Under the pieces are notes generated by a model. That model did not search any database, was not told the DNA's origin, and saw nothing but the letters and a program-made list of their open reading frames with translations. Source: Flaccisagitta enflata (lineage: Eukaryota). Taken from it: a DNA stretch of 64,000 nucleotides. Position numbers and translations under genes: made by a program. Every line of letters starts with the position of its first letter. The first letter of the stretch is position 1. Shown piece after piece: positions 3,036 to 64,000 of this stretch. Where the stretch lies: positions 28,210,001 through 28,274,000 of the forward strand of contig OZ231126.1 in assembly GCA_965153355.1 (NCBI GenBank), in the 5' to 3' direction.

Positions 3036-3141
3036 TTAACGAATTTATGCTCTGTTGTACTGAATCAGTTCAGTACTTACCGGAATTGAAACTATCTCTT
3101 CTTATTGTTACATTGGCTTGTCAAACCAATTGGAATTTTAC

Positions 3142-3203
3142 TACTATTCCGCCTACAGGGAATGTTCGTCGACGAAACAAGGTTGGAGAAAAAGATAAAC
3201 ATT
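3142..3203 (+). repeat. Split direct repeat A1 (left terminus)
   Basis: tactattccgcctacagggaatgttcgtcgacgaaacaaggttggagaaaaagataaacatt, identical to 11521-11582. Confidence 0.95.
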
Positions 3204-3393
3204 CTCCGATGGTGTCCTCGCTTCTCCGACGTGGTCCCTCTCCTGATTCACCAGCAACATTCGACGGAATCAGCTTCAAAAACAATTAAATTTTTTGCAT
3301 TGCCTTCCCCCGCATATTTATTTTTCCTTTCTTTTATTCCCTTTCAGGCTTACTCATAAACAACTTACTAAACATTCATTTAAAGCTAGAGAA

Positions 3394-3822
3394 ATGGCCT
3401 CCACGCTGCCTTTTGTCAAATTGGACCCCAATGCCCATGCTCCAAGGAGAGCTTCTGCTGACGCCGCCGGGCTAGATCTTTTCGCGGTGAACGAAGTCGT
3501 CATTAATCCTGGCAACCGCGAGCGAGTTGAGACCGGCATTCAGGTGGCGATCCCTCGAGGCTACTACGGTAGGATCGCTCCTCGCTCGGGCATGGCTCTG
3601 CGGATGGGCCTCGACGTTGGCGGCGGCGTTATCGACGCCGATTATCGTGGCGGTGTCGCCGTCATTCTTTTCAACCACGGCGCCTCAGAGGTCAAGATTC
3701 TCCCCTCTGATCGCATTGCGCAGCTGATTATCGAGAAGATTGCCTGCCCCGTTCCTGTGGAGGTTGTTTCTCTCGAGGATACCGAACGCGGTTCTGGCGG
3801 TTTCGGCTCCTCTGGCTATTGA
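3394..3822 (+). CDS. dut: Trimeric dUTPase (142 aa) encoded inside the retrotransposon
   Basis: All five dUTPase motifs are present: AGLDL, GRIAPRSG, GVIDADYRG, DRIAQL, RGSGGFGSSG. Intronless; ATG at 3394. Confidence 0.95.
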   Translation: MASTLPFVKLDPNAHAPRRASADAAGLDLFAVNEVVINPGNRERVETGIQVAIPRGYYGRIAPRSGMALRMGLDVGGGVIDADYRGGVAVILFNHGASEVKILPSDRIAQLIIEKIACPVPVEVVSLEDTERGSGGFGSSGY

Positions 3823-3985
3823 GTAATCGATACATCATCAAGATCTAAGCATTCGTATTTCCGTTCCTGTTCGTTATTTTTCTTGCATTTCACGTTTTCT
3901 GTTCTGTTCTGTTACCGTTCTCTTTAGTTATTTCAGATTTACTCAATTAATTTCCTAAGTTTTGACTAGCGTATTTTTCTGCAAA

Positions 3986-5412
3986 ATGGCTGCTACGCCA
4001 AAGCCACCCAAGAGTTATTACGATGCGATGGAGCCTCTGCCGGAAGACTTTCATCCTTACGGTCCCGATTGCGCTCTTCATCGCGAGGTTCAATGCGTCG
4101 CCTTCCATCACGGGTTGTCGCTGGAACACGTTCAGCAGTTAGCCGGCTTTGGCTTCAATTCCGTTACGTCCTTTTCTACGTGCAAGCCCGATGGCACGGA
4201 GAACGAGCAATGTTTGCATCGCCTTGCTTTGGCTCTCTTCAAGTCCGAGCTCATCCGTCATAGGGTGGCCCTAGCGATCGCGCGTTTGAACAGCGGAGAT
4301 CCCTTTGCTCCACTTCCTCCGCCCTTGTTTACGCCTTCAGCATCGCCGTCCGTGTCAAGTGCGGCTTCGTTGCCCCCGGCAAAGAGACAGAAAGTTTCTT
4401 CGAACGAGGCGCAGGCGGCGCCTTCTCCAAACGCATCGCAGTCGACGCTCCCGGCGTCATCTGGAGCGCCGCCTGTAGCAGCGCCGCTTTCTGGCATGGC
4501 CGCGGCCGCGGCTGCTTCCGTTGGGTCTTCTGGCGGCGTCGAGGCCACATCCTCGTCTGGGACGGCGCGAAGAATCGTTACGATGGATGGCGCGAAAGAT
4601 CCCAAGGAGTATTCTGACTCTGATTCTGATTCAAGCTCGGATTCGGATGGTGGCGTCGGTTCTTCCTCGAAGTCCAGCGGAAAGGCGAAGGATGCAAATG
4701 CCATGGTCGAGGGTATCGGCAGTGAGGTGAGAATTCTGATGGTCGGTGATTGGATGATTTCTTTTGAATCTTATTTGATTGACATTGTTTCTGCCATGGA
4801 TATTTTGATATGATGTTTGCCATTTTACAGAGGCTGTCAAAGAGATGGCGCGACTTGCTCGATCACTGCCAGATTCGTATGGAATGTAATTCCGATTCCG
4901 GCGACTACAGCACGATGTTGTACCTGTTCAAGAAAGTCATTCGCTCTGCCAAAGGCTCTCGCGTTGCAGATCCGGTCAAGAACAAGGCTCAGGCGTTGCG
5001 CAGGACTTTGAAGTCCATTTTTCATCTCATCAAGACCCATTGCGTTAATGGAAATTCCGGCGTTGCCACGGTGTTGTACAATGAATTGTCAGGTTTGGCC
5101 GGCTCCTCGACCATCAGACGTGTCAACAAAACGTTACAGCAGACCTTTGGCGCCGCCCGCGGTCGCCTGAGTTCAAACACACGTTCTGACAGCCCGACTG
5201 CCGTTCAGGCTTCTTTCCCAACTAACACCGGACAGACCGCTGGCCGCGGTGGTCGTGGAGCCTTCCAAGGGAATTTTAGGCGTAATTTTCCCAACAATCG
5301 TGGCAACGCCGGCGGCGCCGCTGGGGGCCGTCGCGTTATGCGTTGTTTTATTTGCAATGTCGTTGGCCACGGTTTTCAGCAGTGCCCCCAGCGCCCTGAT
5401 AGTACTTCTTAG
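3986..5412 (+). CDS. Gag-like ORF1 (exons 3986..4726 + 4831..5412, ~440 aa) with C-terminal CCHC zinc knuckle
   Basis: A phase-0 intron (gag|gtgaga at 4727 ... cattttacag| at 4830) joins the two ORFs in frame. An RGG-rich stretch precedes CFICNVVGHGFQQC (CX2CX4HX4C). Confidence 0.8.
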
Positions 5413-6014
5413 TTTCCTTTGATCAATGCCTCAAAGCGTTTTCACCTTCTCGGGAAAGGCAGTAAGACTCTTCTTGGGTCTGTGTAGTAATTTCGTTTAA
5501 AGTCGTAATATGTGATGGTTCCGTCTTGGGATGGCGGCGGCAGCGGTAGCGGAATTTTGCGAGTAATAATGTTTTGATCTGTTATCACCTTTTCTTTACT
5601 ATTTTTGGCGTAGATAATCTTTATTGTTGACACGTTGATTCATCGTTTTGGTTTTTCCTCTTTCAGATAAGCTGATAGCTAGTTTCATTAAAATGGCGTT
5701 TTTTGGTTTCAAAGAAACAAACAGAAATGTTGAATTTAGAGACAGTAACGAGAATGATTGGTTTTATGGAATATGGACTGTGGAAGAGGAAGTGATTTCA
5801 TATATCACATGATATATGTTTGGCGGCATGTTCGTGGTTTGGTTGATGTTCGATCTACCCCCCCCCCCCTCGGCGGTTCATTATGCCGTCGTCGGGCCGT
5901 CGTCGTTGCCACGGATCTGCCTTTGCTCGGCTTTTGCATCTATTTTTGTGCATGCTTTTACATTTATTTTTGTACATGCTAATAATTCATATGATTCTTT
6001 TCATTCTCGGTTGG

Positions 6015-6490
6015 AAATATGTTGTGCCGTGATTTTAGTCACTTGGGTGCCAACATTTGTGAAGCCATTATGGGGCCGTGACTTGGTCACATGAGTGCTC
6101 CTTGGTTTAGCTTCAGTTTTATACCGAGGTTCGATATAATTTTTGACATGTACAATGCAGAGTTTCTCGCGCAAAGGGGAAAAGTGTTTATTTGTGTTTA
6201 AGGCCGTGATTCAGTCACTTGGGTGCCTTCACTTTGGTTTTTTGGGAGATGTTTGCATTTCGTCCGTCTGTCTGCTATGTCTATTTGTCAGTTCGTTTCT
6301 CCCCTGTCAGCATAGTCGTGACAGCAGGCTGTGTCAGCCCTTTTTCCCCGTTATGATTATTTGCACCTCCTTAGACCCTTTGCCGTGATTCGGTCACTTG
6401 AGTGCAAAGCCTTTTCTTTTGTGCCTTGGGCACAGCTTCTTGGTCTTGTTTTTGGCTCGCCGTGATCCTGTCACTTGAGCGCGAGGCCTT
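6015..6490 (+). other. Array of five conserved stem-loop motifs GC-C-GTGAY-(3-4 nt)-GTCAC-WTGRGY-GC, each with a copy-specific closing stem (putative cis-acting RNA element)
   Basis: Cores at 6026-6050, 6075-6098, 6203-6226, 6382-6405 and 6459-6482. The flanks differ between copies but pair in each (atgttg/caacat, aagcca/tggttt, aagg/cctt, ctttgc/gcaaag, ctcgc/gcgag). Confidence 0.75.
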
Positions 6491-6626
6491 TGTGGAGGTG
6501 GTTTGCTCTGCGCGGAATGTACTGTTTCTGGCGTTGCAAGTTAATTGGCTGATGGCACGGGTTTTTTGCCTGAGATGAATTTTCGTCTTATCATATGGTT
6601 TTTTTTTTTCATGGCCTGGTTCTCAT

Positions 6627-6676
<50 letters not shown>

Positions 6677-7573
6677 GCCTTTGCCAAGTACATGAAAATT
6701 CGCGCCACCAGGCCCCCGCTTTCGTCCAGAGATTTTGATCCATTGGCCGCAATGGCCCGTCGCAGTTCGAAGGGCCCTTCATGGGTTGACCTGGAGGGGC
6801 GGCCTGCCTCTCCTCCCGATTTCTCCCGGCTGCCCACGCCAGACGATGTTCTTGCGGGACGAGCAGCCCCCGATTGTGAAGGCTTGAGGCTTCGGTCTCA
6901 ATATACTTTTGTTTGTGGACATTTGCACGATTATGTACCAATTTGGGATTGTTACATGTCCGGTCTGCCGGGCTATGATATTGTGCGCCCATGGCTCAAG
7001 GATGGGGTTCACATCCCTTCCTTTTTTCAACATTTTAAGGGCTCTTTCAATGGGCGTGTTTTCGATTCCTCAACCCCTCCCCCCATGTTTTTTCAGAACG
7101 CTCCAATATGCTGGGAGTACGAGGATTTCATCTCTGATACTGTTTTGAAACGATTGGAGGAGGGTAGCATGCTTTGCCTTGGCCGTGTTGGGGAAACTCC
7201 CCCCCCTTATGTAGTTAATGCTCTCAGCATCGAGCCCATCAAGCCCCGCCTTATATTGTCTATGAGGGCGGTCAATTTGTTTTGTCGCGATACCCCGTTT
7301 TCGCTTGCTCCTTTAACTGATATTGTCAAGGCCATCCCCAATGGCTCTTATTTCTCATCCTATGACGATGTTCAAGGCTACAAGCAATTATCTTTGACAA
7401 AGGAGTCGTACAAATTTTGCGGTTTTGAATGGAACGGTTGGTGGTTTACTGACACAACCCTCCCATTCGGTTGGAAAAACAGTGCTTATGTTTATACAAT
7501 GACGGGTGAGGTTCTTTCTCAATGGCTTCGCTCGAAAGGGGTGCACAATGCCCTCTGGATCGATGACAGATTT
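6677..7573 (+). CDS. pol segment 1: reverse transcriptase (DIRS-order type)
   Basis: KPRLIL, SSYDDVQGYKQL (motif A), TLPFGWKNS (motif B), LWIDD (motif C). Begins after a (CT)n-cag acceptor at 6676; first ATG at 6692. Confidence 0.9.
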
Positions 7574-7673
7574 GTGGGCTTGGCCCCGCCCTTTTGATTT
7601 CATTTTCTACCAGTTTATTTCATTTCCTGCTTGCTTTCTACCATTTTGGTTTTCTTTCATTTCTGTGTCCTAG

Positions 7674-8161
7674 GATTCTCTCGAGCTGCGGGCTAGACGG
7701 GCCTCTTACGTTCTCCTCTACGCGGCAATGGTATTGGGTTATTTCGTTTCTCAACTGAAGAGTACTCTGCTTCCCGTTCAGCGTATGGTCCACCTTGGGC
7801 TGGGAATAGACTCATCATTGATGGCATTTTTTCTGCCGGACAGACTTCGCCAGAAATTTCGTGGTCGAAGGGAAGAACTTTTGTCAACGGGTTTAGCCAC
7901 TGAGAAACAGATGCAGTCATTTATCGGGAAATGTAACCATTTAAAATCTGTTTTCCCCGCTTCATCCCTTTTTACATTCCATTGCCGTCGTTTTGTATCG
8001 CAGCTTGACGAAAATCCTTCCCCCCTACCCCATGAAGTTATGGAGGAAGTCCGTTTTTGGTCCTGTATTGACTCGATGACCGACCCTATTCCTTTTCGTC
8101 GCCATCAGCATTTGCGTCTGAGCCTCTTCACCGACGCGTCTGGGTATGGCTGGGGGGCCTA
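7674..8161 (+). CDS. pol segment 2: RT C-terminal part, connection and start of RNase H
   Basis: LGYFVSQLKSTLLPVQRMVHLGLGIDS and LFTDASGYGWGA. Follows a pyrimidine tract and tag| acceptor at 7673; interrupted by a MITE at 8162. Confidence 0.85.
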
Positions 8162-8495
8162 CCGTATTTTCTCCATTTATCGCCCCCCCTCCAATTAACG
8201 CCCCCCCCTCTTAGAGCTCTCCAGAACAATAATATGAAGGAAGGTGAAATAGCAAATAATCTTTAAAAGTAGAAAGATTTTGCATATTTCAGTGGTTTTT
8301 TTCAAGGATTGAATAAAAAACAAGCAAGATATATCTTATCTTATATATATCTAATATCCTAAGTGGCATTTTTTGTCAATAACGTATAATTAGAGAGTTT
8401 TCACAGATTAAAAGGGGGCGCTAATTGGAGGGTGAAAAGACATTATATTTTTTCAATTTCAAAAGCGCCCGGGGCGCTAATTAGAGAAAATACGG
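8162..8495. mobile_element. 334-bp MITE (Tc1/mariner-pogo type, TA target duplication) inserted in the RNase H domain
   Basis: TIRs ccgtattttctc / gagaaaatacgg flanked by TA at 8160-8161 and 8496-8497. Removing the element plus one TA restores GWGAYVSLPSG in frame. Confidence 0.92.
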
Positions 8496-8497
8496 TA

Positions 8498-9830
8498 TGT
8501 GTCTCTTCCCTCTGGTCCGCTTGTCCTCCGCGACTATTGGCAGTCTGATCTGTTGTCCAATGATATATGCGTCAAAGAGGCTTTGGCTGTTCTGTTTGTC
8601 CTTCAAGCCCTGCCTGAGTCTGTATGGTCACGTCGAGTTGACATTTGTGTTGACAATGAAGGTCTGTCCCTCGCCTGGTCGGGCCTCCGGGCTTCCTCCC
8701 AGGGTTTAGCCGAAGTCTTGAAAGAATTAGCCCTCCTATGTATCGATTTAAATGTTGATTTGCGCCTTCTCTGGGTGCCCACAGATTTCAATATTGCTGA
8801 CGCTCCCTCTCGCGTCTTGTGTCGCAGCGACGCCCGCCTTTCTGACGCTCTCCGTCTTTCCCTTTGGGAGCGTTATGGTCCATTTTCATGGGATTTGATG
8901 GCCCTTCCGTCAAATGCCTTTTCCGTTTATGGGCGTTCTCTGCCTTTCTTCTCTCCTTTTCCCATTGCTGGATGTGCGGGCGTGGATGTTTTTTCTCAGC
9001 GCGCCCCTCGCGGAGTTTCATATGCCTTTCCCCCCTTTGTCATGATCTTGCCCTTGATTGGTTTGTTGGAAGAGTGGGGCGATGTTTGCGCCATTTTGGT
9101 CCTCCCCTTTGACTCCTTTTCTGCACCACCAAGCTGGTTTTCACGACTTTCCCCTTTCATTTTGGAAATCATGCCTTTGGTTTCCAAGACAGACATTGGT
9201 TCTGTCCTTTTTCCTTCATCCGGGGGTTTCGCTCCAAACTGCTATCCCTTAGCCTTTGGCTTGTCTGCTTTCAAATGTTTCTTTCCACCACGGGCCACTC
9301 TCCCTCGGCCCTTTCCTCCTCCTCCTTTCAGGATCCTCATCGGTTCCGACTCAATGTTGCGCCCTTTGGCCGCTTTAAAATGGCCCTCTCCTTTCAATGT
9401 TGAAGTAGTTTGCCTTTCCGGCGCCTCTCTTGCCACTGTCATTTCACAGCTTGTTTTGCGCCTCCCTGCCCAGTTTGATGCCTGCCTCTTTCACGCTGGT
9501 GTCAACGATGTTTCGAGGGGGGGCGATGACTTTCAGGGCTCCTTTCAGTCCTCCTGTTCTTATGCAGCTTCTGTCCTTTCATCGAAATTCCCGGAAGGTG
9601 CGATTTTGTGCTCGTCTGTCTGTCAGACCAAATCCGCGAGCCTTAACGAGCGAGTGCGTGTAGCAAACGAGGCTTTCCGCTCCTTTTCTGCCTCCTATTC
9701 CTGGCGGTATGTTTCTCACGATAATATTCGTTTTGCCGATCTCTCAGACGAGGTCCATTTGAGCGCTTCTGGCGTCGCTAAAATGTATCGCCATTTATGT
9801 TTTGCCTTTCGCTCTCTGCTGAGTAGTTAA
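8498..9830 (+). CDS. pol segment 3: RNase H + DIRS-type N6-adenine methyltransferase-like domain + SGNH/GDSL hydrolase domain
   Basis: RNase H: ICVKEALAV, CVDNE, WVPTDFNIADAPSR. MT-like: WDLMALPSNA...FFSPFP...GVDVFSQ...SYAFPPFVMI...AILVLP. SGNH blocks: IGSDSM, LSGASL, FHAGVND, DEVHLS. Confidence 0.85.
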
Positions 9831-10107
9831 TGATTTTCTAGTTGGCATTATTGCACAATGTTAACAATGTTCCATAATACATCGTGATGCTAACAATGTT
9901 CCACAATGCTTTGCAATGTTCCACAATGTTTCAGTGTATGCGAGTAATTCAGGAGTCGCTTGGCGTTCAATGTGGAAGCTGGGGCAGAGTAAGCGCCATC
10001 TCCGGCGGTCATGGAGTGAAGTTGTTCAGGTAAATTGGTGGTGAATGTGTATGGTGCTTGCTGTTTACGTTCTCTTCTGCCCCCTCTTCCCTTTCCACAT
10101 CCGGCAG

Positions 10108-11328
10108 TTGGATGGTTATTTCACCCGCCGCGACGCGCTGCTCCATCTTGTTAAAGGCTCTAGTTATGAGATTCAAAAATCACGTTTGGCGCAGGATTTG
10201 TGCACCTTCCTCATGGCTCATTCATCGCTGCCCCCTCCGTTGGCGACGGCTGCTTCAATCGATAAGGCAACTCCTGAAGACATTGGGAAATTTCTTTACT
10301 TTCGTGATTCCCGCGGCCGCACACAAATTCATAAATCAAGTTGTCCTTTCATCGGCATGTCGGGCTTAAAGGACTGCGGTTGCCGCGTGGGCCTTGCAGC
10401 TGGAACAATTGACTCCATGATTGGCAAGTTGAGAGCCTATTTCAACAGTCGTGGGCAGACTCAGCCTTATTCTCCCTCGTCTTCTAATTCTAATCCCTGC
10501 GACTCGACGTTTGTCAAGGATTGGCTCAAGGCGGCCTACAAGGAACAGCGGCTTGCCAGAGTCACGCCGCATCAAGCGCCTCCCCTTTTTTCGACGCATT
10601 TACGCCTTCTCGCAGCGGAGATCTCACGCCGCATTGCTTCTCTTCCTTCTTCAGCGCCGCTCTTCCCCGAAAAATTTTGCCTTTTTCGAGATCGCGCTTT
10701 CTTCTTGATTCAATGGTTCAGTGGCGACCGGGCCGGGGATTTGGGACGTGCGGTCGGTCAAGAGGTCTCGCGACCTTCAACGGGTGCCTTAATTCTCAAG
10801 CACACAATTGGAAAAACAATTCGTCAAAGTGGCAGTCAAATTTTAGTGGTGCCTCATATCCCGGAAGATTCGCTTGTTTGCCCTGTCCGCGCTTTCGACG
10901 ATTATGTTGAAGTTTGCAAGTCAGGCGGGATTGATTTGAAGGGAGGTTTTCTTTTTCCTCCCCTCCTGGCCCCTAAGCGGAACAGCGTAAGGAACGCTCC
11001 TTTTAATTCGGCGGCTGCTACAAAGAGAGTGCGTCTCTACATTTCTCCCGATGTGCTTCCTGACGTTTCCGCCCATGGCGCCCGGGCGGGCTGTGCTACA
11101 ACCCTTCTTCTCCTCGGCGCCTCTAAAGATGAGGTCATGGATCATTGTAGGTAGGCTTCAGAGCGCGTTTGCAAGCAGTACCATCAGCTTCAAAAGGTCT
11201 CCAGGATTAAAGGCTCAGCTTTGCGACTTAAAGACGGTCTCCTCGCTTCAGACGAGAAATCAGCAGACAGCGCGGCGGCTTTCTACGAATCCCTGAATAA
11301 TGGGGAACATCAAGCTCCTGCCCTATAA
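10108..11328 (+). pseudogene. Tyrosine recombinase of the retrotransposon, with premature TAG at 11152-11154 (probably from TGG)
   Basis: RDRAFFLIQWFSGDRAGDL (catalytic R), HTIGKT (K), SAHGARAG (HxxR), DHCR*ASERVCKQY (H/W and nucleophile Y). The frame stays open after the stop until TAA at 11326-11328. The 5' start is uncertain; possible upstream exon ~9970-10029. Confidence 0.88.
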
Positions 11329-11455
11329 TCTTTAATCCCCTCTTGCTCTGTAAATAATGATTTGCGTCTGGTTAGTACTGGGTGAGATATGGGTGTTGTG
11401 TGTCCGAGCCTTTTGATTTTCGAGGCCTCTGGGGCCTCGATACTCATGTACTGCA

Positions 11456-11582
11456 GCGCTTTTTGCCCACTCCCTAAACACAGGTTCGTCGACGGGCAGA
11501 AACTGCTTGGCGGAATAGTATACTATTCCGCCTACAGGGAATGTTCGTCGACGAAACAAGGTTGGAGAAAAAGATAAACATT
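11456..11582 (+). repeat. Internal B1-A2 junction of the split direct repeats, with a 24-bp palindrome
   Basis: B1 abuts A2 across ggcggaatagta|tactattccgcc (11509-11532), a perfect palindrome. Confidence 0.93.
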
Positions 11583-11761
11583 TCCGTAGGGGGATAGGCT
11601 GATATAGGCTGGTGAATCAGGTATTGATTATCCTTGTGTGTGTGGTGTTGCTGTATGTGATTGCTTCTCGATCAATATCAATGGAATAATTTTTCATCCC
11701 TTTCCCTCCCTCCCTTCTCTCTTTCACCTGCCTTCTGGCAATCCATACGGCAACACTGCAC

Positions 11762-11830
11762 GCGCTTTTTGCCCACTCCCTAAACACAGGTTCGTCGACG
11801 GGCAGAAACTGCTTGGCGGAATAGTATACT
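11762..11830 (+). repeat. Split direct repeat B2 (right terminus)
   Basis: Identical to 11456-11524. Confidence 0.95.
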
Positions 11831-14052
11831 GTGTTAGTTCGTCATAGTCAGCAAATTTTGCCAAAAAGAACATTTCGTTTAGTCGTTTATAACAGAATTA
11901 GCAAAAAGTTTCGTACTCTGTCTTGAAAACCATACTTTTTGCGGGAGTTATGAGCTAAAATTTGAACCAGAGTATCTCAGTTGGTCATACTAAAGGTAGA
12001 AATGAAGAGCAACTGATAAAATTTCCATACATGGCCATGACCTGTATCTAAAACAAAACCGAAATCAGGATTAATACATGATTTTATTTGCAGAACTGTG
12101 TTTATCAAAAGAAGAGTCTTTGCAACTTTATTGGCCCCTAGTTGGACTCTTTCTAAGGAGAAATGCATCTAGGGGAGTTGGTTAGGTCAACTAGCATGGG
12201 GTTTCAGTCAGCAGAAATTGATATATCAATCCAATTAAGACAAGAGTTGAATGTGCATTCAAAGACCAAAAATCTATTTTAATCTATTTCATTTGTCCCT
12301 ATTAGTTTAACAAGACCAAGTAGGCCAATAGATGCGACGTGTGGATCGTCGAACGAATGCGTTACAGACCAACCGACCGACAGACAGACCGACGGACACA
12401 GCCCGTTATAGAGGTGCTTTGTCGCACCTAAAAACATAAAAATGAACTCTGCTGTCTAACATGCCTCCATTCATCTTTTCTGAAGTTAAAGTATAATCTA
12501 ATTTTCAACTATGAACATTTCTTTCAGATAATTTCTTTAATGCTAGGTGTCTTTTCTTAAGATTTGATGACAAGTACGAAATTTTTTGCACACCCTGTTA
12601 ATAGCGAATGGTGCTGTTTACTTTTGAGCGAATCAAATCGTCCAACTTGTGGTCTTTCCATTCCATTTGCGTTGCTGTTGAGTCAAGCATCTTCATTCAG
12701 GTTTCCTGTCTCCGAATGTGACCTTATATACCCTAAATCCATGCATGTGATCTTTTTTTCACCCATCCATCCTATCTATATCTTTTGAGTCTATATCCTA
12801 ATGGAATCATGAGCATCGGGTCCGTCTGGAGGCACTAGCACTGATACTTGATACATTGATTGGAAAGTAATAAGTATCGAGATGTTCCTACCGTTTCCTC
12901 CTCTTCTCCATCGCCATCCTTCTTCCCCCGAAGTGGGTCTCCCCTCGTTACCCCTCTTTTTAATTTTTTTGCCGATTTTGAAATATCGGAACCGGGCAGA
13001 ATCGGAAATTTAAGGGAAGCAGAGCAGCTAGACGGCGGCATTAAGCCAATGAGAGCGAAGAAAAACGAACCGCAGAAAGCGAAGGATCCTATCAGAGGCC
13101 GGAGTCAGTTACTATCCAACACACCGTCTGCGCGACGACACATTTGCGGGGTGAATCATTGCCATCGTTAGAAAAAGAGAGAGAAAGGAATTCGATTCGG
13201 CACGATTTGAATCGCGTAATAGTAACCGCTCTCTTATTTTGATTGTTTTCTTACATCGTTCATTTACGACAGGGATTACTCGTTGACATGAACCTGGGCA
13301 GGACGGACACGTAAAAAAGAGACAGACCTCGTATTTGTCTCTTTGTCGGTACGTCCGTCATCGCTTTGTCGCTGTTTCTCTCCTACCCTGTTTCCAATAC
13401 AATACTGATCAGCCAGCACGCGTCAAGGGCGAGGCACAAATTTCGACCTCATAACAAACATTTTTCTTCTCTGCGTGCCAAGTTTGGTCTTATGAAAATA
13501 GAAGTAAGGTCTGCTGTCATACGGGGGTGTGATAAACAGATTTTAAGATCCACATGATTTGTTTCTTTCCCTTTTTTCTCACGACTTAGTTTGACGGTTA
13601 TTTATAGCGAGTTATGTCGTAGTACTGTAAATTCTCAAACTATAAATATCGATAAAATATCTCTCATATGTGGTGGTATTGACTGTCCCATATTGATATT
13701 CAATTTTATTCACCATCTCATATTATTATTGAGTATTGACCATCTTCTATTCATATTGACTATCCCATAGTTATTTTGGGATCGAATTAGTTAAAGATGT
13801 CTCATGTAGGGTAGCGAGGGGTGGGGAGGGGTGGTTACACCACCCCTCGCCCCACCCCTCCCACCCCTCGGTTGAAATTGACCACCCCTTGGTTTACCCC
13901 TCCCACCCCTTGGTTTACCCCTCCCACCCCTTGGTTTACCCCTCAGTTTACCCCTCAGTTTACCCCTCGGTCCACCCCTCACCCCACCCCACCCCACCCC
14001 TCACCCCACCCCTCGGTTTTTTTTATACTTCAAAAATTTGATAAAATTGCTA

Positions 14053-15900: not shown

Positions 15901-16337
15901 TTAATTAAGTTAAAAGCTCATTATCCCTCACTACCCCTCAACCACCCCTAACCCCACCCCTCGCCTTACCCCTCACCCCACCCCTCGCCCCACCCCACCC
16001 TTCACCCCACCCCTCACCCCACCCCTCGCCCTACCCCACCCCTCGCTTTACCCCCCCCCACCCCTCGCTTTACCCCTCCCACCCCTCGCTACCCCTACAT
16101 AATTTCAAACCACCCTTCACTTTTTTACCACCCCTAGCTACCCCTCACTACCCCTCACTGAGACATCTATAACTAATTTCAGCCTTATTGGGATATTGAT
16201 TAAAACTCATAATGATAGGATTTCTAACTCACATTATATTGGTATATATAAGGTTAGTGTTTCTAAGTATCGAATGAAGAATTGAGATCCCCGTTTGATG
16301 ACAGTCCTTCTAATGACATCAAGATTAAGTTAAGAAG

Positions 16338-45430
<29,093 letters not shown>

Positions 45431-50575: not shown

Positions 50576-62309
<11,734 letters not shown>

Positions 62310-64000
62310 CTGCGACAAGACACGTCATGATACATACACGCATGAATGACCACGGCCACGGAAAGAGGAAGATGGGAGGCGTGGGATGGTGTAAGGGAGG
62401 GTACGACAGGGAAGGCATGAGAGAACAAGGAGAATTAGAACGCAGCAAAGATGGAGAAGAGGATGAAGAAGTAGGAGAAGATGGAGAAGAAGAAAAAGAA
62501 GAAGAAGAAGAAGAAGAAGAAGAAGAAGAAGAAGAAGAAGAAGAAGAAGAAGAAGAAGAAGAAGAAGAAGAAGAAGGAGAAGGGGGAGAAGAGGACGAAC
62601 AGAAACAACAAAAAACAACGTCTATTCGTCCGTCGGTATGTAACGTTCATCGTTTTCTGAGCGGTGTCGGCCAAACCGGTCGCGCATGGTATCTGGCTTT
62701 CTGATGATAAAGTTCACACCGCATTAGTTATGAACGCAACTGGAAATTTCAGTTGAAAGATGTACTAATGAATGAATAGATAAATGAACAGAAACAACAG
62801 CAACAAAAACAAAACAACAATAACAATAACAAAAAAAAAAAACAAAAACAAAAACGAAAACAAAAACAACAACCATAACAACAACAACAACATCAACAAC
62901 AAAATGCGTTAGCGCAAGAAGCACAAGTAAGGCAACGTTTGGGGACAATGCCAATGGGGAAACGAGGAGAAATAGAGAGCGTTGCTCAGGAGTCTGGAGT
63001 CTCCAGTGGAGAAATCTTTTTAGTCCCGGACTAGCGACTCTGTAAGAGGCTTTGTCCGTCCGTCCGTCCGTCCATCCGTTGATCCGTCCGTCCGTCAACG
63101 AAGGTCAAAAAGTGGAGAAGCAAGCGTTTTAGTAGAGCTTGAAAAAGGTTAGCCCGTAGATCTCAACAGTTCAGATTTTGCTCTGAAATCAAATTCAACT
63201 GCGTGTAAGATAAAATCACTACGGCCAAACGCTAGCTTCTACAATCCCGGCAACTTCACCGGCGGAGAGAGTGTTAAGTTCTGCTTTGGATTTCAAATGA
63301 AAATTAGGAGATCAAAGCACCCCCGATTTTTAATATTGAATCAATTGACACAATGTTTCATACAATTTTCTGTTCATGCGCTCAAAGTTAGAGTCCAGGG
63401 ACGTAAAGGTCAACTTAAGCACAGACAGTCATATTTTTTTCTAATCTACATTATTTCACATGTATTAAGGTCAATCTTTTTTTCATCGATGTTACTCATA
63501 GGGTTTGGCAGATATTTCACTTTTCTTACTAGACCTACTTCCCTACTCGGATGAAGACTAAAGTAAAGGGGATTTTTATGAAGCAATTTTCCTTGTCATC
63601 ATTGCCGTCTTATTATGCTGTAGTGAGAGACGCACTATCATTAACTCTCTATGGAAACATTTTTTTTGAGGCGCCAAATGGCGTTTTACAGATTACTGCA
63701 TGCAGTTGGATTCACCTTTGGTGTTCTGATGCAATTTATACGTATCAGCGTATCTCTTTGTCTTATTATTCGTTGGTTTTAGCCAGTCTGTCTTTCTTTC
63801 TCAACGCGTAATGATACATTGGAAAGTTAACTCTGACTTAGAGAAAATGTCGGTGGAGACGAGTTTTAGAAATAAAAATGTTTGTACAACATCAAAATGA
63901 GTAATGCTGAAGACATATGATTTCCACAGTTTTATTCAGCGCCGTCACTTTAGTCAAATTGCTGAAAATGATTTTCAAGCGAGCTTTTTTACCCCCGCTG

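Follow-up and report, generated by a model that had tools for sequence, protein, structure and literature searches.

Ngaro elements, a superfamily of tyrosine recombinase (YR) retrotransposons that includes DrNgaro of zebrafish, DIRS-53_XT of Xenopus, and the Cafeteria Ngaros, are marked by split direct repeats laid out as A1-[ORFs]-B1A2B2 (PMC9210276, PMC8547959). In the available passages of these two papers, Ngaro elements carry a gag-like open reading frame (ORF), a reverse transcriptase (RT) with RNase H, and a YR; fish and amphibian members add an SGNH/GDSL-type module as an ORF after the YR, and neither a methyltransferase nor a dUTPase is among the genes named. Retroelement-encoded dUTPases of the trimeric type are known from retroviruses (betaretroviruses, non-primate lentiviruses, and ERV-L), where, according to the excerpts at hand, they are presumed to lower the uracil content of cDNA (PMC4531489, PMC5753468). 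LTR retrotransposons with a dUTPase include the fungal Gypsy elements PosPlaTy3 and Tmt1, the rotifer elements Juno, Vesta, and TelKA, and a planarian giant Gypsy element, and the parts of these reports that were available treat dUTPase gain by retrotransposons as recurrent and independent while calling it rare (PMC2864245, PMC5408684, PMC6431247). The capture of a dUTPase is thus among the few accessory functions repeatedly gained by unrelated retroelements.

Here we describe an element that appears to extend this recurrent capture to the tyrosine recombinase order, with the dUTPase as a separate cistron. It occupies 8,689 bp (3142 to 11830) of the window, by which we mean the whole 64,000-nucleotide stretch of DNA that was analyzed, and all of its ORFs lie on the + strand (Table 1). 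A repeat search of the window recovered the order A1...B1A2...B2 that is shared with the Ngaros, in repeats that are shorter than those given for DIRS-53_XT in the available text (62 + 69 nt versus 236 + 152). BLAST stretched A1 to 3132 to 3208 at 94.8% identity.

Table 1. Coordinates in the window of the Ngaro-like element's repeats, predicted genes, introns, and inserted sequence
Feature	Positions	Strand	Evidence or remark
Split direct repeat A1, left end	3142..3203	+	62 nt, 100% identical to A2
Pyrimidine tract + CAG, acceptor-like motif TTCAGGCTTACTCA	3343..3356	+	38 nt before dUTPase ATG
dUTPase ORF, 142 aa + stop	3394..3822	+	Pfam PF00692, human DUT match
gag-like exon 1	3986..4726	+	ORF; five relatives, 3/5 break off at the same point
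gag intron, 104 nt, GT..AG	4727..4830	+	Read from sequence; P0147 spans the junction
gag-like exon 2, CCHC zinc knuckle	4831..5412	+	ORF, P0147 match
pol exon 1, reverse transcriptase	6692..7573	+	RVT_1 E 3.2e-5, below cut-off
pol intron, 100 nt, GT..AG	7574..7673	+	Sequence; frame 2 to frame 0
pol exon 2 (RT thumb, RNase H, SGNH-like tail)	7674..9830	+	MITE-interrupted
MITE, 336 bp, terminal inverted repeats, flanking TA	8160..8495		In RNase H
Tyrosine recombinase ORF, N-terminal ALOG domain	10045..11328	+	ALOG_dom 6e-20
Split direct repeat B1	11456..11524	+	69 nt, 100% identical to B2
Split direct repeat A2	11521..11582	+	100% identical to A1
Split direct repeat B2, right end	11762..11830	+	100% identical to B1

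The gag-like gene has a relative, P0147, that is continuous over the intron junction and aligns to exon 2 with 41% identity (E 2e-35). Homologues of the RT number 99, mostly of about 300 amino acids (aa), and the ORFs of about 90 RT relatives stop at the position of the pol intron, just after the RT active-site motif. Having an intron of ~100 nt in both gag and pol sets the element apart from Ngaros as the available passages describe them; both introns are canonical, and their positions look conserved in relatives. The tail of pol (~9414 to 9776) gave a weak Lipase_GDSL_2 match below the cut-off (E 4.3e-4, 21.3 bits against 32.9). Four SGNH blocks were read there by eye, no PDB sequence matched the tail, and its single-sequence structure model had a pLDDT of 44. 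This SGNH-like part is fused behind RNase H and precedes the YR, in contrast to the separate, downstream ORF reported for Ngaros. The catalytic residues of the YR were likewise read by eye, in an ORF that is cut by a stop.

A profile search found neither rve nor protease families in seven ORFs. No methyltransferase was found at E≤0.01 in the pol ORFs or at E≤0.1 in two pol pieces, a result compatible with a divergent domain. Based on these features, we file the element as probably Ngaro-like within the DIRS order: it combines an RT and a YR with no DDE integrase and no protease, as DIRS-order elements do; its split direct repeats follow the Ngaro arrangement; and, unlike DIRS-like and PAT-like elements, it lacks a methyltransferase within the families scanned.

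Several smaller features of the element were also recorded. The B1/A2 junction forms a perfect 24-nt palindrome (11509 to 11532), the four letters TACT are common to both element ends (3132 to 3145 and 11819 to 11835), and the 10 nt preceding A1 look like the end of B, which would fit a recombinase acting on a target similar to its own junction. Gag and pol are separated by an AT-rich gap of 1.28 kb (5413 to 6691) that is unusually long for such an element, holds no credible ORF, and ends in (CT)24. The spacer has the same depth as the remaining element and is therefore no nested repeat.

The initial annotation had pointed to a 142-aa intronless ORF with five dUTPase motifs, some 190 bp inside A1, as the first ORF of a DIRS-order element, and this description was borne out. 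The ORF runs through 142 uninterrupted codons from an ATG at 3394 to a TGA at 3820 to 3822. Its ATG lies 191 nt past the end of A1, which places the ORF inside the element and within its exact split repeats. It is the 5′-most sizeable ORF of this Ngaro-like element, has a separate ATG and stop codon, lies 163 nt ahead of gag, and shares its strand with gag, pol, and the YR. Its composition (GC 0.587, GC3 0.62) is like that of the gag exons, with AT-rich spacers on either side, as around the other exons.

The Pfam dUTPase profile PF00692 matched the ORF over profile positions 2 to 129 of 129 (E 8.6e-38, 129.5 bits; cut-off 22). In a search of solved structures, the top match was human DUT (1.1e-41, residues 4 to 141), followed by other eukaryotic dUTPases; feline immunodeficiency virus (FIV) dUTPase and Escherichia coli Dut scored 4.6e-21 and 2.9e-16, respectively. 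The blocks AAGLDL, APRSG, GVIDADYRG, DRIAQL, and RGSGGFGSSG, which we take to be the five named dUTPase motifs including the C-terminal glycine-rich arm, all align to human DUT with identical or conservative residues. A full-length dUTPase within the boundaries of the element is thereby confirmed and is far beyond chance, and the comparisons support the prediction that the protein is a full catalytic-type dUTPase.

The arrangement of this gene differs from that of other retroelement dUTPases. Retroviral dUTPases are in-frame domains of Gag-Pro or Pol, and LTR carriers, which have an integrase and LTRs, place the dUTPase domain between the protease and RT or at the ends of Pol. The window dUTPase, in contrast, is a stand-alone first cistron rather than a domain of a polyprotein, in a protease-less element that has a tyrosine recombinase and is bounded by split repeats. 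Since a protease is missing from YR elements, an added enzyme would have to be a separate ORF; the element would be a natural case of such an addition, with its own acceptor-like leader. The openly accessible full-text literature that was searched returned no dUTPase in a YR retrotransposon and only papers on retroviruses, endogenous retroviruses, and LTR elements. dUTPase is not known as a standard gene of YR retrotransposons, as the initial annotation had also remarked.

The copy that carries the dUTPase is defective. A MITE interrupts RNase H, and an in-frame TAG at 11152 to 11154 breaks the YR ORF. This TAG falls nine codons short of the presumed catalytic tyrosine, and the YR frame stays open for 57 further codons beyond it. 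"Intact," as the locus had been called, therefore applies to the dUTPase ORF and not to its carrier, and because the carrier is dead, an uninterrupted 429-nt ORF in this one copy is no proof of selection. Contigs were compared from the likely source run (X1), a second sample (X2), and a marine metagenome (X3). The MITE's family is present in very many copies (summed depth >3e5 in X1), and an X2 contig joins 8159 directly to 8496 with the MITE missing, so the insertion is polymorphic or copy-specific. Two of the differences listed for X2 fall inside the dUTPase ORF (3489 and 3618), and both are third-position, synonymous changes. Element contigs in X1 had a depth of 77 to 90 (about 88), compared with 117 to 152 for the non-repeat flank, and one X1 contig was continuous from 3174 to 6619. 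Given this depth and this unbroken contig, the element looks roughly single-copy at high identity. BLAST self-comparison detected no second copy of the element within the 64-kb window.

We considered whether the ORF might belong to the host rather than to the element. Human DUT-N and DUT-M share the five blocks and the core length of the window protein, and the window dUTPase is 54% identical to P0326, a protein that is nearly identical to human DUT. Compared with cellular DUT, the window dUTPase has no nuclear or mitochondrial targeting extension, is intronless, sits in a transposon, and was unseen in polyadenylated [poly(A)] RNA: in a poly(A) RNA run from the same organism, of which about 6 in 100 reads (12 million) were read, no read matched 3101 to 3834 at ≥80% likeness. 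On this sample of reads, the DUT mRNA that the host expresses is not a close match to the ORF, which is therefore no recent copy of it. Outside high-copy repeats, the whole element was without reads in the portion of this run that was read. That the ORF is simply the host's single-copy DUT gene, with the element boundaries drawn wrongly, draws on the cellular type of the protein and its proximity to animal DUTs, and is scarcely credible for an ORF that lies between A1 and gag inside exact split repeats, lacks both introns and an N-terminal targeting extension, and has no poly(A) RNA reads. The suggestion that it might be the host's expressed DUT has thus been set aside.

A second host-derived explanation is a processed retrocopy that LINE machinery made from the host DUT mRNA and that ended up, purely by chance, within the 5′ untranslated region of the already dead element, with no bearing on the element's biology. 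Such a retrocopy would be intronless, as the dUTPase is whereas gag and pol retain introns, the element copy is indeed dead, and an imperfect 14-nt repeat bounds the cassette at 3343 and 3932. This motif, however, is equidistant from the dUTPase and gag ATGs and resembles a splice acceptor rather than a target duplication, and the sequence after the dUTPase stop contains neither a poly(A) tract nor a flanking duplication of the processed-retrocopy kind. The lack of RNA reads at ≥80% likeness also indicates that the host DUT mRNA is not near the ORF. In addition, the X1 contig runs unbroken through the region, and contigs from X2 and X3 have the same arrangement. On these grounds, we regard a nested processed retrocopy as improbable.

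To place the protein among its relatives, we relied on several searches. A word-indexed protein search returned five clusters at 76 to 80% identity, all exactly 142 aa long, and seven clusters at 58 to 67% identity (143 to 149 aa), followed by a cloud at about 55%. The clade at 58 to 80% identity consists of stand-alone dUTPases of ~142 to 149 aa with no N-terminal extension, and its ten closest clusters comprise 33 distinct entries with up to 46 contigs each. All five motif patterns were present in 33 of 36 clade sequences; two others were truncated, and one was without motif 4. Among the sequences at ≥70% identity (n = 27), 62 of 142 positions vary, and the motif cores are invariant. Motifs kept in 33 of 36 sequences, with few broken members, fit a gene that is selected but multi-copy, and the clade pattern suggests long-term purifying selection as expected of a multi-copy mobile gene.

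A HMMER scan of 1.84 billion representative proteins yielded 38,874 matches at E≤1e-3, in which the clade was represented by P0012 (61%). No fused close relative of the dUTPase was found among all of the representatives scanned. The top scorers (P0285 to P0300; 285 to 767 aa) contain two or three dUTPase units in tandem, forming covalently linked pseudo-trimers, and are unrelated to the element.

We built a quick IQ-TREE tree of 87 rows: the window protein, 12 clade representatives, the first 45 single-domain representatives (≤280 aa), 10 further matches, 3 named Acidobacteria, and 16 IMG/VR rows that included 4 giant-virus metagenome-assembled genomes. The multi-domain top matches and all other rows were left out, most rows carried no names, and supports were moderate and unstarred. 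The dUTPase clade formed one group (SH-aLRT 89) within a 25-row group (SH-aLRT 90), of which two members were checked: P0326, the near-identical match to human DUT, and P0309, which is of animal type. The acidobacterial, IMG/VR, and giant-virus rows fell elsewhere in the tree. The clade thus stands beside metazoan cellular dUTPases, as judged from the two checked rows, and apart from bacterial, phage, and giant-virus ones.

Based on the phylogeny and the searches, the best reading is that a metazoan cellular DUT was captured, independently of the retroviral dUTPases; the closer match to cellular DUT (1.1e-41) than to FIV dUTPase (4.6e-21) points to such an independent capture. Scans of other collections gave few further relatives. 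Among the matches listed, metagenome contigs scanned with the dUTPase contained only generic dUTPases at ≤56% identity, and viral contigs contained only phage and giant-virus dUTPases at ≤55%. Viral contigs scanned with the YR, the RT, and the RT alignment had no matches, nor did prokaryote genome contigs scanned with the RT and the RT alignment. A protein atlas was also tried as a clue to origin; it held generic viral-labelled dUTPase clusters only and was silent on this question.

The main alternatives concern whether the dUTPase belongs to a lineage of elements or to this element alone. We lean toward the former, in which the dUTPase is an accessory gene of a Ngaro-like YR retrotransposon lineage and was captured by an ancestor of that lineage. 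The distance to the nearest non-self relative is similar for the two genes (dUTPase, 80%; RT, 77 to 78%), and for both, the interval above it is empty up to about 99 to 100%. In the relative P0141, an upstream in-frame stretch also reads as a T-rich tract, with a distance to the ATG similar to that in the window. The dUTPase was linked to gag by an X2 contig (3174 to 4528; 17 differences and 5 gaps) and by an X3 contig (3511 to 4053; 3 differences), although these contigs may represent the same locus in other individuals.

Depth over the dUTPase is raised. Its bin had a summed depth of 280 in X1, compared with about 88, and of 224 in X2, compared with about 85; the RT bins had a similar depth of 240 to 254, and a contig of ~11-fold depth carries a variant at 3618. 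The dUTPases of other organisms, at the DNA-conserved motif 3, could be a partial source of the extra dUTPase depth.

We also matched relatives by the size of their longest contig. This approach covered 33 dUTPase entries and 120 listed matches against 99 RT representatives, together with the members of 15 RT clusters and 5 gag clusters. It linked a gag relative (P0441) to an RT relative (P0274), both at 9,553 nt, and gave no credible link between the dUTPase and any RT or gag relative in this set. Size coincidences at 824 and 1,144 nt were too short for both ORFs, and a third at 1,492 nt was discarded because the RT piece there comes from the C-terminal end of pol exon 1, a geometry that does not fit. 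Several RT relatives are on contigs of 9.2 to 9.6 kb, and no listed clade dUTPase has a contig of such a size, so many relatives in the family may lack the dUTPase. RT relatives amount to about 90 clusters, compared with about 12 for close relatives of the dUTPase. The most probable picture is a larger Ngaro-like family in which a single sub-lineage has the dUTPase and most other members do not.

The same observations bear on the possibility that the dUTPase is a one-off or very young passenger, neutral and present in this element or a tiny sub-lineage only, and that the other 142-aa dUTPases are retrogenes or genes of other mobile elements. An element that is about single-copy at high identity would fit a passenger, as would long RT-bearing contigs with no listed clade dUTPase and the failure of size matching to connect the dUTPase relatives to RT or gag when it did connect gag to RT. 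We nevertheless think a passenger unlikely, given the near-equal gaps to the nearest dUTPase and RT relatives, the age of the clade (down to 58% identity, with motifs kept in 33 of 36 sequences), the T-rich tract shared with P0141 at a similar distance from the ATG, and a dUTPase composition that fully matches that of gag. If the dUTPase were confined to one broken copy, the finding would shrink to a curiosity. If the gene instead belongs to a lineage, the convergence on dUTPase would reach a third integration chemistry and elements with possibly single-stranded cDNA. The capture of a dUTPase by a YR element would also suggest that the selective pressure is uracil in the cDNA itself and not biology specific to retroviruses.

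The sequence comparisons establish the gene, its position within the element, its intact motifs, and its conserved clade, whereas catalysis, a benefit to the element, inheritance through retrotransposition in other copies, and the mode of expression are inferred. An ancestor of the element lineage would have picked up an intronless, metazoan-type homotrimeric cellular dUTPase as a stand-alone 5′ cistron between A1 and gag. The predicted enzyme would hydrolyze dUTP, yielding dUMP and PPi, close to where reverse transcription takes place; at lower dUTP, the element's RT would incorporate less uracil into cDNA, and excision by uracil-DNA glycosylase and the resulting breakage would be avoided. 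Such protection is proposed by analogy with the retroviral dUTPases and with an argument made for LTR elements, which in the available part of the source are held to replicate where cellular dUTPase is low (PMC2864245).

The benefit might be especially large for cDNA that may be single-stranded in the DIRS order. A circular cDNA intermediate had been assumed for this element, an assumption that does not sit with DIRS-1, whose extrachromosomal cDNA is described in the accessible portion of one report as single-stranded and mostly linear (PMC7192593). If the state of DIRS-1 cDNA extends by analogy to this Ngaro-like element, protection from uracil becomes, if anything, more plausible, because single-stranded cDNA has no complementary strand for repair and a dUTPase would be especially useful.

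Some phage and herpesvirus dUTPases are reported to have non-catalytic roles, and the protein here might have been kept for a moonlighting or regulatory role rather than for dUTP hydrolysis. We consider this most improbable, since every catalytic block has been kept throughout the clade, and so has the C-terminal arm of motif 5, on which catalysis depends.

Expression may involve the leaders of the ORFs. Twelve of the 14 letters of the acceptor-like motif TTCAGGCTTACTCA recur at 3932 to 3945, at the same distance before the gag ATG. Local alignment of the entire dUTPase and gag leaders lacked significance, since 120 of 500 shuffles scored at least as high, and we discarded the idea of a leader duplication on this basis. 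A pyrimidine tract with CAG precedes every ORF of the element (3343 to 3356, 3932 to 3945, 6629 to 6682, and 10020 to 10027), and the tract before pol is a (CT)24 microsatellite. These tracts hint at candidate acceptors for spliced or trans-spliced sub-genomic mRNAs.

A more complete scenario, which we put forward only tentatively and would not bet on as a whole, is that of a marine zooplankton Ngaro-like lineage with a captured animal dUTPase as its separate first cistron, which would be the first such case in the YR order. In this scenario, the acceptor-like sites at the dUTPase, gag, pol, and YR would give rise to alternatively spliced or trans-spliced mRNAs, unspliced RNA that keeps its gag and pol introns would serve as the template for transposition, and the single-stranded cDNA would be protected.

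The element lies among other repeats. An extremely abundant short repeat occurs on both sides of it (2280 to 2460 and 12309 to 12434; summed depth >1e6), with loose ends in which GACG/GACC units are frequent. Where contigs join the two flanking copies, the joints were considered as an empty site and dismissed as repeat artefacts. Between 2000 and 13000, RNA reads fell only on this short repeat and on the MITE. Elsewhere in the window, exons of a KIF2A-like kinesin-13 (16329 to 24431, + strand; N-terminal domain at 3.2e-26 plus motor exons) lie among microsatellites, and an FHA-domain exon is present at 62053 to 62646 on the − strand. The kinesin-13 and FHA exons show an animal host whose introns are long and rich in repeats, and DNA of this host was also found in marine metagenome runs.
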